The translations under genes and the position numbers were made by a program. This document shows positions 7,093 to 13,108 of a stretch of DNA of 37,398 nt, piece after piece. Location: assembly GCA_964433595.1 (NCBI GenBank), contig CAYSRF010000003.1, forward strand, positions 1 to 37,398. Reading direction: 5' to 3'. The notes under the pieces were generated by a model. The model did not search any database, was not told the DNA's origin, and saw nothing but the letters and a program-made list of their open reading frames with translations. How positions within the stretch are numbered: position 1 is the first letter of the stretch; every line of letters starts with the position of its first letter. Origin of the DNA: Candidatus Hadarchaeota archaeon. Its GTDB lineage: Archaea; Hadarchaeota; Hadarchaeia; Hadarchaeales; Hadarchaeaceae.

Positions 7093-7113
7093 CTTTTACA
7101 CCCCTGTAAATTT

Positions 7114-9315: not shown

Positions 9316-9771
9316 GTGAAAATTATGGAACTCGACAAAACTGACCGAAAGCTACTCAACCTCCTGCAGGGCGATGCCAAGGTGCCCTACGCCAAGCTTG
9401 CCAAGCGGCTAGGCATAAGCTCTTCGGGGATCCACAAGCGGATGAAACGGTTGGTGGATGCAGGGGTTATTAAAAAATTCGTCGTCGTGGTTGATCCTCA
9501 GGCGGTCGGGAAAAAGTTGAAGGCTTTTATCGGCGTTTCCACTTCACCCGGCACCTGCGGGGAGGTAATTGCACAACTCAACCGAAGGCCCGAAGTACTT
9601 GAAGTCCATGAGGTGGTCGGGGAGCACGACCTCTTCCTCAAGCTGATCATCGACGACACGCTGGGACTAAACAAAGTCCTGCACGAAATCGACCGAATTC
9701 CCGGTGTCAGCAGCACGCGAACGCTGGTCGTGCTCAAGACGGAGAAAGAGACGAGTTTGATCCCGGTTTGA
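9316..9771 (+). CDS. Lrp/AsnC family transcriptional regulator
   Basis: LDKTDRKLLNLLQGDAK N-terminal HTH, RMKRLVDAGVIK, and C-terminal RAM domain (EVHEVVGEHD...STRTLVVLK). Confidence 0.93.
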   Translation: MKIMELDKTDRKLLNLLQGDAKVPYAKLAKRLGISSSGIHKRMKRLVDAGVIKKFVVVVDPQAVGKKLKAFIGVSTSPGTCGEVIAQLNRRPEVLEVHEVVGEHDLFLKLIIDDTLGLNKVLHEIDRIPGVSSTRTLVVLKTEKETSLIPV

Positions 9772-9821
9772 TATTTTTCGCTGAAAATTGTTGTATTTAA
9801 GTTGAACGACGATGGCCGAAC

Positions 9822-10009
9822 CGTACTGGGGAGTACGATTGGGTATGCAAATTAATTTGCCATTCGTACCGGGGAGTACGGACCCACTCGCCGATTACAA
9901 AATCGTACTGGGGGGTACGAATTTTAGAAGCATGATGATGTCCGTACCGGGGAGTACGATTTTTCCTCCTTAAAAATCACCTCCACGCAAATCCGTACCG
10001 GGGAGTACG
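9822..10009. repeat. Array of five 16-bp palindromic repeats CGTAC(Y)GGGG(R)GTACG with unique spacers
   Basis: Copies at 9822-9837, 9865-9880, 9904-9919, 9943-9958 and 9994-10009; spacers 27, 23, 23 and 35 nt; the arms CGTAC/GTACG are exact reverse complements. Confidence 0.95.
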
Positions 10010-10045
10010 AGACCTAACGGAGAATGGCACGAGATATGTGAGTAC

Positions 10046-10321
10046 TTGAGCAGGGGCGCCAGGACCAAACTCGTTAAGCTTTTGCTCGAAGAACTCGGCT
10101 CGACGGCAGAACTCGCGAGGAAAATTGGCATCACCGAAGGTGCTGTCCGCAAGTGGCTAAATTCAACACACCCCTCGAACTCGAACCTAGAACTTCTGCT
10201 GAGACTCGCCTTTGCGATTAACAAAGAACCATCACTGAAAATACTCAAGGAGGATCTCTGGACCCACCGGGATTCACTCGAGGCCCTCTTAGAATGGATC
10301 AATCACCGAACTCGCGCGTGA
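10046..10321 (+). CDS. Small Cro/XRE-type helix-turn-helix protein (true start uncertain)
   Basis: STAELARKIGITEGAVRKWLNSTHPS is an HTH signature; the reading frame is open upstream to TAA 9971-9973 without an ATG. Confidence 0.8.
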   Translation: MSRGARTKLVKLLLEELGSTAELARKIGITEGAVRKWLNSTHPSNSNLELLLRLAFAINKEPSLKILKEDLWTHRDSLEALLEWINHRTRA

Positions 10322-11501
10322 TCTGCTCGAGCGTCGCCGTGAAACGCTCGATTTCCTTTTCAAGATTGTAATAGTGAACCGAAGCGCGGACGGTTCCCTT
10401 AACACCTAGGTGGCGCATGGCCGGCTGAGAGCAGTGATGGCCCGATCGAACAGCTATCTGAGCGAGCTCGTCCAGCATCGATGCAACATCGTGGTGGCCT
10501 AAACCGCTGATGTTAAAACTCACGACACCTCCCCGTTGCTCGACGTTGCGGGGACCATAAATCTTGATGTGCTCGATATCCACGATTTTCAGCATTTGCG
10601 CGGTCAGCTTTCTCTCGCGTTCGGCAATTCGCTCGATACCTATCTCAAGCACGTACTCGCACGCACGACCCAGTCCAATGATGCCCGGTATGTTTGGGGT
10701 TCCGGCGTCGAAAATTTGAGGCGGTTTAACCAAATCATATTTGTGTTTCTCGACCTGCTCGACGATGCCCCCTCCGACCAAGAGCGGTTCGAGTTCAGCT
10801 AGACGATCTTCGCGCGCGTAGAGAAAGCCAGTACCTTGGGGCCCCAGTAGCCCCTTGTGCCCAGGGGCGGCCAGGAAATCACACCCTAACTTTCGAACGT
10901 CGAGTGGCATGTGTCCAACCGATTGGGCTGCATCGACGAGGAAAAGTACATCATGTTCTTGGGCAAGCTTGCATATCTCCTTCACCGGCTGGATGCTCCC
11001 GACCGCGTTGGAAACGTGATGGGTGGTTATAAGGCGAGTTTTGTCATCGATTGCCGCCTCGATTGCAGCTGGGTCGATCAAGCACTCGCGCGATACCGGG
11101 ACGAGCTCGAGCTTGACTCCCTGACGCTCAAGACGCTGCCAAGGAAGGAGATTTGAGTGGTGCTCGAGCACCGTTGTCACAACCTTGTCACCTTTTCGCA
11201 GCTTTAGTCTCTGAGCGACGATGTTTATCGCCTCGGTCGTGTTCTTTGTGTAGGCGATCTCCTCGGGCTTTGCGTTGATCACCTTGGCTATTTTCTCGCG
11301 AGTTGTTTCAAATTTCCCGGTTGCCCGCTTGGTCGCGCGGTATAAGCCCCTCCCAACGTTTGCGCTGTACTCGCAGAAGTACTCGAGCATTGCATCGAGA
11401 ACGGGTTTGGGTGTGGGTGTTGTTGCAGCGTTGTCCAAGTAGATAATGCCCGTGCGCAAGAACGGGATATCAGCGCGAACTTGATCGACGCTCTTGCCCA
11501 T
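10299..11501 (-). CDS. Cysteine desulfurase, SufS/Csd type (aminotransferase class V)
   Basis: YLDNAATT, EHHSNLLPW, DAAQS, PGHKGLLGP (PLP lysine) and VRSGHHC (catalytic Cys) motifs. Confidence 0.93.
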   Translation of the reverse strand: MGKSVDQVRADIPFLRTGIIYLDNAATTPTPKPVLDAMLEYFCEYSANVGRGLYRATKRATGKFETTREKIAKVINAKPEEIAYTKNTTEAINIVAQRLKLRKGDKVVTTVLEHHSNLLPWQRLERQGVKLELVPVSRECLIDPAAIEAAIDDKTRLITTHHVSNAVGSIQPVKEICKLAQEHDVLFLVDAAQSVGHMPLDVRKLGCDFLAAPGHKGLLGPQGTGFLYAREDRLAELEPLLVGGGIVEQVEKHKYDLVKPPQIFDAGTPNIPGIIGLGRACEYVLEIGIERIAERERKLTAQMLKIVDIEHIKIYGPRNVEQRGGVVSFNISGLGHHDVASMLDELAQIAVRSGHHCSQPAMRHLGVKGTVRASVHYYNLEKEIERFTATLEQITREFGD

Positions 11502-13014: not shown

Positions 13015-13108
13015 GGGCCCGTAGTCTAGCTTGGATAGCATTCGCGCCCAAAGAGGACACAAGCCTGCGGAGCTTGCGGCTCGGGTTCAAATCCCGACGG
13101 GCCCGCCA
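13015..13108 (+). tRNA. tRNA-Arg(GCG) with 17-nt non-canonical intron in the D-loop (13037-13053), CCA encoded
   Basis: Acceptor GGGCCCG/CGGGCCC; anticodon arm CAAGC-CT GCG GA-GCTTG; T-arm TCGGG-TTCAAAT-CCCGA; BHB motif TTGG/CCAA with ATA and AGA bulges. Confidence 0.9.

Follow-up and report, generated by a model that had tools for sequence, protein, structure and literature searches.

What purpose is served by five near-identical palindromes that stand in a row directly upstream of a small helix-turn-helix (HTH) gene in a Hadarchaeota archaeon, and what might read them? The locus lies in a stretch of 37,398 nucleotides (nt; hereafter the window, meaning the whole of the DNA analysed), positions 1 to 37,398 of contig CAYSRF010000003.1 (C3) in the Candidatus Hadarchaeota archaeon assembly GCA_964433595.1 (G000), which comprises 857,674 bases in 93 contigs and is 78% complete. 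The Hadarchaeota are uncultivated subsurface archaea, and to our knowledge almost nothing has been learnt of gene regulation in them. From a comparison of sequences, it is likely that the five palindromes constitute an operator array for autoregulation by the product of the adjacent gene, an HTH protein of the XRE type with about 104 residues.

A pattern scan for CGTAC-N6-GTACG returned exactly five matches in the window, all of them within the array and all with the G-run on the plus strand (R1 to R5, Table 1), just as the original prediction had described their positions, periods and shared orientation. In shuffled versions of the window the mean was 0.01 matches, and five were reached in none of 100 shuffles. 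The array consensus is CGTAC-YGGGGR-GTACG, with periods of 43, 39, 39 and 51 nt and spacers of 27, 23, 23 and 35 nt; the conserved unit is about 19 nt and thus longer than 16, a pyrimidine-rich base preceding it and an A or G following. No further match was found in the rest of the window or in the rest of assembly G000, and the motif, standing as it does at a single locus, is not a dispersed genome-wide repeat. An open reading frame (ORF) at 9812-9973 reads through the array; a coding repeat was nevertheless rejected, as this frame is not conserved as a protein in a related genome (G010) because the spacers there carry 1-nt and 23-nt indels.

That second genome, G010, belongs to the same genus and is 83% identical to G000 at the nucleotide level over 2362 nt. 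It has the same order of Lrp/AsnC-type regulator gene, array and HTH gene, with six repeats, one more than in the window, the extra unit arising from a 23-nt insertion which is one of the gaps in the spacers. In the pairwise alignment the repeats are identical at 80 of 80 positions, and the spacers at 84 of 106 with a further 26 gap columns. As the repeats are constant whilst the spacers diverge by point changes, the spacers are orthologous and drifting and the repeats are held constant; judged from this alignment, selection is acting on the repeats. The original prediction had called the spacers unrelated and unique. They are indeed dissimilar within the array, but they are orthologous between species and so are not unique in the sense in which CRISPR spacers are. 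The same stability was seen between strains. Contigs from four other sequencing runs, three of which span the array, carry five point differences within it, namely in spacers at 9920, 9929 and 9942 and at degenerate positions of the consensus at 9914 (G>A at the R position of R3, giving the consensus TGGGGA) and 9948 (C>T at the Y position of R4); two of these contigs have a depth below 5, where single differences may be errors. There were no differences in the arms or in GGGG, no indels are listed and there was no spacer turnover. The 39-nt block directly upstream of R1 is 100% identical in G010, against 79% for the adjoining spacers, and it is possibly a second promoter or the site of another protein.

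The gene that follows the array was predicted to be of the Cro/XRE type, and its 91-aa ORF matches HTH_3 (PF01381) over residues 11-53 with a score of 27.6 bits, the cut-off being 23 (E 3e-6); matches to YdaS_toxin, P22_Cro (1.4e-4) and HTH_26 fall below the Pfam cut-offs, whilst a profile of the family itself matches 10016-10294 with E 1.2e-32. The gene does adjoin the array, as had been claimed, but its start is not the TTG at 10046 and its frame reaches into R5. Homologs place the N-terminus of the family about 13 codons upstream of that TTG, with the pattern [KR][WF][DH]G-x-x-E-x-x-SR-x-x-R, and G000 has a conserved in-frame counterpart (…GEWHEICEY-LSRGAR). The frame contains no ATG, GTG or TTG from the stop at 9971 up to 10046, and the codon at the position of the TTG is CTA in G010 and CTG in two further genomes, G023 and G065. 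The ACG at 10007-10009 falls in the alignment where close paralogs such as L031 and L044 have their TTG start, and ACG also stands at the family start position in the orthologs of G010, G023 and G065 and in a paralog (G016:C27). On this alignment, a near-cognate ACG start codon lying inside operator R5 is probable. Between G000 and G010 the ratio dN/dS is 0.23 for the HTH gene (100 codons), 0.07 for the Lrp-type gene and 0.06 for the desulfurase gene on the other side; to judge from these ratios, the HTH gene is functional and under purifying selection.

With the family profile, 39 loci were identified across 66 Hadarchaeota genomes, 23 of which have at least one and none more than four; 6 of the 13 genomes of the window's own genus are amongst them, and G000 has three (on C3, C36 and C53). 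An alignment of 27 sequences (A1) has invariant E11, S14, R15, R18, W49 and P55 and nearly invariant H54 and N57, and the N-terminal extension is conserved across the family. The AF2 model of the window protein (pLDDT 94.3) has six helices, with the HTH formed of helices 32-39 and 43-51 and a long C-terminal helix at 72-102. Its best Foldseek matches are all of the XRE type (SinR, ClgR, HigA, C.Esp1396I and Cro), at TM scores of 0.4-0.5 and none with E ≤ 0.001. A homodimer prediction scored 0.50 (median of three runs) against 0.01 for the best control, at a mark reached by 20 of 30 solved homodimers and by 1 of 23 single chains; the runs had no fewer than 30% of their contacts in common, partner pLDDT was at least 83, and the interface consisted of helix 72-97 together with residues 5-15. 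The protein is thus predicted by the model to be a symmetric homodimer. However, this score should be considered with caution, as dimers of XRE proteins have been solved and it may partly reflect likeness to known structures. An interface at residues 5-15 would explain the invariance of E11, S14 and R15.

The family and its operator architecture appear to be undescribed. The HTH protein had only sub-threshold matches in NCBIfam, with no match to a nuclease-domain family; a search of PDB sequences gave nothing below E 0.006, and profile matches to Cro and c2 were non-significant. A profile search for homologous proteins returned 14, none of them informatively named, one being a ‘hypothetical protein’ of an MSBL1 archaeon. 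A full HMMER search gave 1605 matches at E ≤ 0.001, and many of the best 150 are long proteins of repeated HTH units which are not members of the family. Matches in a protein atlas were to unnamed viral clusters and to HTH or CII-like clusters, and these serve as leads only. The literature, as far as search listings reveal it, held nothing on this HTH family or its motif.

Further evidence that the palindromes and the protein belong together comes from the family as a whole, where the region from -700 to +1000 nt around the HTH gene was surveyed at all 39 loci. Palindromic sites were found at every one (39/39), and 35 have at least one perfect copy. Within a first set of 31 loci, 28 carry a perfect 5-bp arm-N-GGGG-N-5-bp arm and the other three carry 3 to 6 recurring copies with one mismatch; of eight loci held out from the pattern finding, seven have perfect sites, and the eighth has only one-mismatch hits which may be due to chance. 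The background is low, with about 13 perfect sites outside the recurring families on both strands of the 858 kb of G000, or approximately 0.03 per locus window. Arrays of 5 to 6 copies occur at several loci (G028:C9, G034:C3, G025:C3 and G010:C60), and the spacing ranges from tight 14-nt tandems directly upstream of a TATA box up to 40-120 nt. Many loci also carry sites just past the 3' end of the HTH gene, and many are flanked on both sides. When arms alone were used for the search, the centre was GGGG or CCCC in 110 of 119 sites.

The arms themselves differ between paralogs of a single genome, being CGTAC, ACAAC and TTGAC in G000 and CGGAC, TAAAC, GGACA and TCAAC in G024, and they follow the predicted recognition helix (residues 43-51). 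The helix TEGAVRKW is paired with CGTAC arms in four genomes from two genera, the held-out G065 among them, whilst TERAVRKW is paired with CGGAC and TEMA[IV]RKW with TAAAC. Mutual information was calculated between every variable column of the alignment and the arm bases for 35 sequences less than 90% identical; co-variation with the arms is highest at residues 45, 43 and 44 (mean z 4.7, 4.0 and 3.7), and these make up the first turn of that helix. The original prediction, in which an HTH dimer binds a multi-site autoregulatory array, is indirectly supported by the sites at all family loci, by this co-variation and by the predicted homodimer; the expectation that homologues would also have palindrome arrays upstream, with the helix and palindrome co-varying, was borne out.

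The position of the sites relative to the promoter is consistent with such a role. The TATA-like box TTAAAAAT, which we infer to be the promoter of the HTH gene, lies 11 nt past the end of R4 and 16 nt ahead of R5. The G-run of R5 begins at 10000, 23 nt past the end of the box, and is preceded by a pyrimidine. Archaeal TATA boxes are centred near -26/-27 from the transcription start; as the spacing here matches this, transcription would be expected to start near the first G of the run, with a predicted leader of about 7 nt to the ACG. An A/T box is found at the equivalent position in G010 (TTATAAAC), in G065 (TAAAAAT, 17 nt ahead of the proximal site) and also in paralog promoters, and the order of TATA-like box, 16-17 nt, site and start codon is common to G000, G010, G065 and paralogs with other arms; at 13 paralog loci with different arms the proximal site lies at -51 to -56 from the start of the profile match. 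The distances between successive sites in the window correspond to approximately 4.1, 3.7, 3.7 and 4.9 helical turns, which places them roughly on one face of the DNA and is a weak indication of cooperative loading. The 16 nt between the TATA-like box and R5 are homologous to a box, CCTCCACCCAAAG, which many paralogs from different genera (including L020, L031, L038 and L044) have downstream of the TATA box and ahead of the start codon, often with CTCGGCGGGAG after it. The window version reads CACCTCCAcgCAAA, and its form CACCTCCA resembles the 3' end of 16S rRNA.

If the array is an operator, the HTH homodimer would form via the long C-terminal helix and the N-terminal helix, and its two recognition helices would read the 5-6-bp arms (CGTAC and GTACG), which are separated by about one helical turn from centre to centre. 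The GGGG core would probably be read by its shape, or by the conserved H-P-x-N loop after the recognition helix. Lying 16 nt downstream of the TATA-like box, R5 would cover the predicted transcription start and the likely ACG, and a dimer bound there would block the recruitment of RNA polymerase, resulting in negative autoregulation. R1 to R4, which are upstream of the TATA-like box, could raise local occupancy or cooperativity, or could activate the promoter when the level of protein is low. The module of the window would then be one of a set of mutually distinct paralogous protein/operator pairs in the Hadarchaeota, some of which have sites at other genes.

There are a number of points which sit less comfortably with an autoregulatory operator. 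There is no second CGTAC locus in the assembled 78% of G000, and with sites only at its own promoter the protein would regulate only itself. The GGGG core is strand-asymmetric, constant across paralogs and in one orientation within most arrays, and is never GGCC or CCGG; a symmetric dimer leaves such a core unaccounted for. The arms used for the arms-only search, for the pairing of arms with helices and for the arm mismatches considered below were originally taken from GGGG-centred hits. The co-variation was calculated on related sequences, for which the internal control of comparing all columns lowers the phylogenetic confounding and does not remove it. The HTH gene lacks a canonical start codon at the family start position in G000, G010, G023 and G065, and the copy in G023 has two in-frame stops and is, from its sequence, probably a pseudogene.

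Could the repeats instead act as RNA? A transcript from upstream of R1 would contain five hairpins of 5-6 bp with G-rich loops, and might form a structured leader, be bound by protein or give rise to small RNAs, the last being close to the transcribed and processed mini-array which the original prediction had offered as its alternative. The G-run is wholly or mainly on the sense strand at 34 of the 39 loci, the conserved 39-nt block with TATTTAAG upstream of R1 could supply the promoter, and at several sites the G-run lies 7-10 nt before a start codon in the manner of a ribosome-binding site. However, the arms of 130 sites contain 36 mismatches, of which only three are G.T or T.G, whilst 19 are purine-purine, and mismatches persist across copies (A.G in 10 of 10 sites of two loci; G.A in three sites of two genomes); persistent mismatches other than wobble pairs fit the recognition of half-sites and not base pairing. 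Moreover, at five loci, all of one subclade, the G-run is mainly antisense, sites on C38 and C39 of G000 have an antisense orientation to the genes on either side, and three loci have tandem 14-nt arrays upstream of the TATA box. There was no Rfam match at the array at the gathering threshold, and spacers which are orthologous and stable between species and strains are unlike processed guide units. We therefore regard a function as RNA as very unlikely. Binding by a different protein, with the HTH gene merely a regulated neighbour, is in our view quite improbable. The candidates are the Lrp/AsnC-type regulator, whose gene ends 50 nt before R1, or a shared factor specific to GGGG; the core is equal in all paralogs, as would be expected of a common factor, and the CCTCCACCCAAAG box is likewise common to their promoters. 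In genus g11, however, the orthologous HTH gene and its CGTAC sites (L019 in G023:C1 and L071 in G065:C59) adjoin a minus-strand tRNA gene approximately 200-250 nt away, which appears to carry an intron, and no Lrp-type neighbour was noted; the G023 module has only two sites, one of them degenerate. Across the family the arms track the recognition helix of the HTH protein and not the neighbouring genes, which are diverse amongst the paralogs. A common GGGG-binding co-factor may nonetheless act jointly with the HTH protein.

A further explanation concerns the origin of the array and so would be compatible with operator function: the array would belong, as a remnant or as a working part, to a cassette that is mobile or selfish, and would not be a regulatory switch of the host. 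Such a cassette could be a portable unit of promoter, operator and HTH gene, or the array could be the terminus of an integrated element. The patchy distribution of the family and its multiple paralogs per genome would suit this, as would the differing contexts of orthologs (Lrp and cysteine desulfurase genes in one case, a tRNA gene in the other) and the many loci with sites on both sides of the gene. In addition, G000 has three copies of a composite unit about 95 nt long (C36:4140-4234, C36:4603-4695 and C39:7450-7545). Each consists of a pair of abutting ACAAC-type sites, then a spacer, in which two of the copies carry a TATA-like box, and then a third site, which is degenerate in one copy. 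Two of these units lie on either side of the C36 HTH paralog and run opposite to it, and the third is at a contig end directly upstream of a fragment resembling the C-terminus of CofG. One paralog (L041, G024:C18), whose promoter has six 14-nt tandem sites, is followed about 60 nt downstream by a 464-aa ORF with a Cas12f1-like TNB domain (TnpB-like; Pfam 5.6e-11). On the other hand, no integrase, transposase or replication gene adjoins the module in the window, its neighbours being Lrp, hisC and cysteine desulfurase genes; no terminal repeats or target duplications were identified, and between two species the module keeps its synteny and shows purifying selection. Such a cassette is, on balance, very improbable indeed. 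The regular spacing and dissimilar spacers also invite comparison with a CRISPR-like mini-array or an ORB-type replication origin, and the G-run loosely recalls the G-string of archaeal origin boxes, yet we consider these scarcely credible. Several arrays are present per genome with different arms, each beside an HTH paralog. The CRISPR-like array is contradicted by the short repeat of 16-19 nt, by spacers which are orthologous between species and stable between strains, and by the lack of Cas1 (PF01867, no matches in the 78%-complete G000; other cas families were not searched). The origin is contradicted by the many arrays per genome and by the two Orc1/Cdc6 (Cdc6_C) matches of G000, which lie on C75 and C10 and not on C3. 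Nor was the suggestion of a parS/centromere or chromosome-organising site upheld, since each genome has several paralogs, whose own sites lie at ordinary promoters and in intergenic positions.

Returning to the operator array, the constancy of GGGG, its asymmetry, its usual sense orientation and its place at the predicted transcription start suggest that the sites may be more than symmetric repressor operators. One speculative extension, which is unlikely on present evidence, is that they are portable promoter-operator cassettes which move from gene to gene and bring each under the control of a paralog-specific HTH protein. The layout of such a cassette, were it to exist, would be distal sites, TATA box, CCTCCACCCAAAG box, site and start codon; in that improbable event, the G-run might conceivably act as an initiator, a 5' leader, a ribosome-binding element or the target of a second shared factor. 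If this were true, the family would represent natural orthogonal and self-contained regulatory parts with a recognition code of one residue to one base.

Table 1. Positions in the window of the repeats, the predicted promoter elements and the neighbouring features.
Feature	Position	Strand	Basis or remark
R1, CGTAC-TGGGGA-GTACG, most distal predicted operator	9822-9837	+	Exact match; same in G010
R2, CGTAC-CGGGGA-GTACG, predicted operator	9865-9880	+	Exact match; same in G010
R3, CGTAC-TGGGGG-GTACG, predicted operator	9904-9919	+	Exact match; same in G010
R4, CGTAC-CGGGGA-GTACG, predicted operator	9943-9958	+	Exact match; same in G010
R5, predicted proximal operator; last three bases are the in-frame ACG	9994-10009	+	Exact match
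Small XRE-type HTH gene, 104 codons from the ACG at 10007; first canonical in-frame start TTG 10046	10007-10321	+	
TATA-like box TTAAAAAT of the predicted HTH promoter	9970-9977	+	Read from the sequence
16-nt box caCCTCCACgCAAAtc between the TATA-like box and R5	9978-9993	+	By eye; homologous to the CCTCCACCCAAAG box
39-nt block adjoining R1 on its upstream side, with TATTTAAG at 9794-9801	9783-9821	+	Alignment with G010
Lrp/AsnC-type regulator gene, context and not part of the module	9316-9771	+	AsnC_trans_reg 1.5e-17; HTH_24 3.4e-17
Class-V aminotransferase/cysteine desulfurase gene	10299-11501	-	Convergent; overlaps the 3' end of the HTH gene
Perfect palindrome TTTACA-GGGG-TGTAAA, same class with other arms	7095-7110	-	

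Sites of this class also occur away from the HTH genes. The other palindrome types of G000 are present in about 3 to 11 copies each. TTGAC/TTTAC-type sites are found at the C53 paralog and in other places: on C39 in an intergenic position after a putative CofD-like gene, on C70 at the junction before a putative type I dehydroquinase-like gene (both genes being named from their translations only), and on C4 between genes for a PilB-like ATPase and a PilC-like protein. The window itself has a perfect palindrome with other arms amongst the his genes which lie further upstream of the array; it occupies the 21 nt that separate the stop of hisG (7114) from the TTG at which the following his gene starts (7092). 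An identical 16-mer is present at C38:5922, with near-copies on C4 and C7, and an HTH paralog of the cognate TTTACA type is present in G010 (C31) and absent from the G000 assembly. The genes downstream of nine paralogs encode a DEAD helicase, a TnpB-like protein, an aminotransferase, TFB, a T2SSF protein, a response regulator, a DUF1614 protein and two proteins without a Pfam match; as these are mutually unrelated, the proteins of the family look like local transcription factors with small regulons and without a fixed partner gene. As an aside, the only Rfam matches in the window are two tRNAs, of which the one at 13044-13105 (plus strand) has 30.4 bits against a threshold of 29 over 62 nt and may be an unusual or partial tRNA.

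The locus provides a concrete candidate regulator-operator pair for the Hadarchaeota, to which the comparative data add about twenty with different specificities, and the family is a possible source of orthogonal archaeal repressors. Recognition helices which are near-identical (G, R or M at residue 44) and are paired with arms that differ at one to three bases (CGTAC, CGGAC and TAAAC) constitute a natural experiment on the recognition of DNA by HTH proteins. The likely ACG start inside an operator and the invariant, asymmetric G-run both bear on initiation in archaea. The original prediction of an undescribed system holds for the protein family, which appears to be new, but overstated its kind: autoregulated XRE-type repressors with multiple operators are well known, and the finding is for that reason useful rather than surprising.

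Several known systems can be set beside this module. The array shares with CRISPR arrays short direct repeats of internal dyad symmetry and dissimilar spacers of similar length, but CRISPR repeats are about 23-50 nt in length, and the arrays studied here have orthologous spacers and go with HTH paralogs. REP elements with a RAYT transposase, in which many dispersed palindromes accompany a flanked gene for an HUH transposase, were likewise rejected, as the CGTAC motif is confined to one locus and the flanked gene encodes an HTH protein of 100 aa without a nuclease-domain match. The XRE antitoxins HigA, HipB and GraA have the class of fold that is predicted here (matches 7csw_A, 3trb_B and 6f8h_C, probability 0.80-0.87) and repress themselves via palindromes in their own promoters; a toxin-antitoxin pair was nevertheless rejected, the neighbours being Lrp/AsnC and cysteine desulfurase genes and no partner being conserved at the nine paralog loci (seven unrelated families and two without a Pfam match). 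The lambdoid Cro/CI repressors, with their operators OR1-3 and OL1-3, P22 Cro and c2, and N15 Cro belong to the same HTH class, with matches below significance. These proteins have several 16-17-bp pseudo-palindromic sites per promoter region, bind cooperatively and regulate themselves. The Hadarchaeota module differs in that it lies on an archaeal chromosome, where no phage genes were seen nearby, in sites that are near-identical and not graded, and in the asymmetric GGGG core. Within the archaea, Ss-LrpB of Sulfolobus is an autoregulator with several regularly spaced palindromic boxes in its own control region, and for regulators of this type the position of a site relative to the TATA box and transcription start decides between repression and activation. 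Ss-LrpB has a winged HTH and a RAM domain, whereas the window protein is predicted to be of the all-helical XRE type, with other motifs, and the likeness is one of layout, for which homology is not claimed.

The C proteins of restriction-modification systems (such as C.Esp1396I and C.BclI), with their C-box operators, offer a further comparison. They are amongst the best fold matches (3g5g_N, probability 0.98, TM 0.52/0.68; 3ufd_F, probability 0.97), although at Foldseek E values of 0.4-0.5 these are non-significant and there is no membership at the level of sequence. No restriction endonuclease or methyltransferase gene was found within about 2 kb of the HTH gene, the wider window not having been scanned for restriction-modification families. 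The window protein is distinguished by an extra N-terminal helix, a long C-terminal helix and the context of an archaeal TATA box, and its array by five sites instead of two and a constant GGGG centre. C-protein transcripts have very short leaders or none. What the two have in common is the arrangement proposed here, that of a small XRE-type HTH homodimer which regulates its own expression from tandem palindromic operators in its own promoter.

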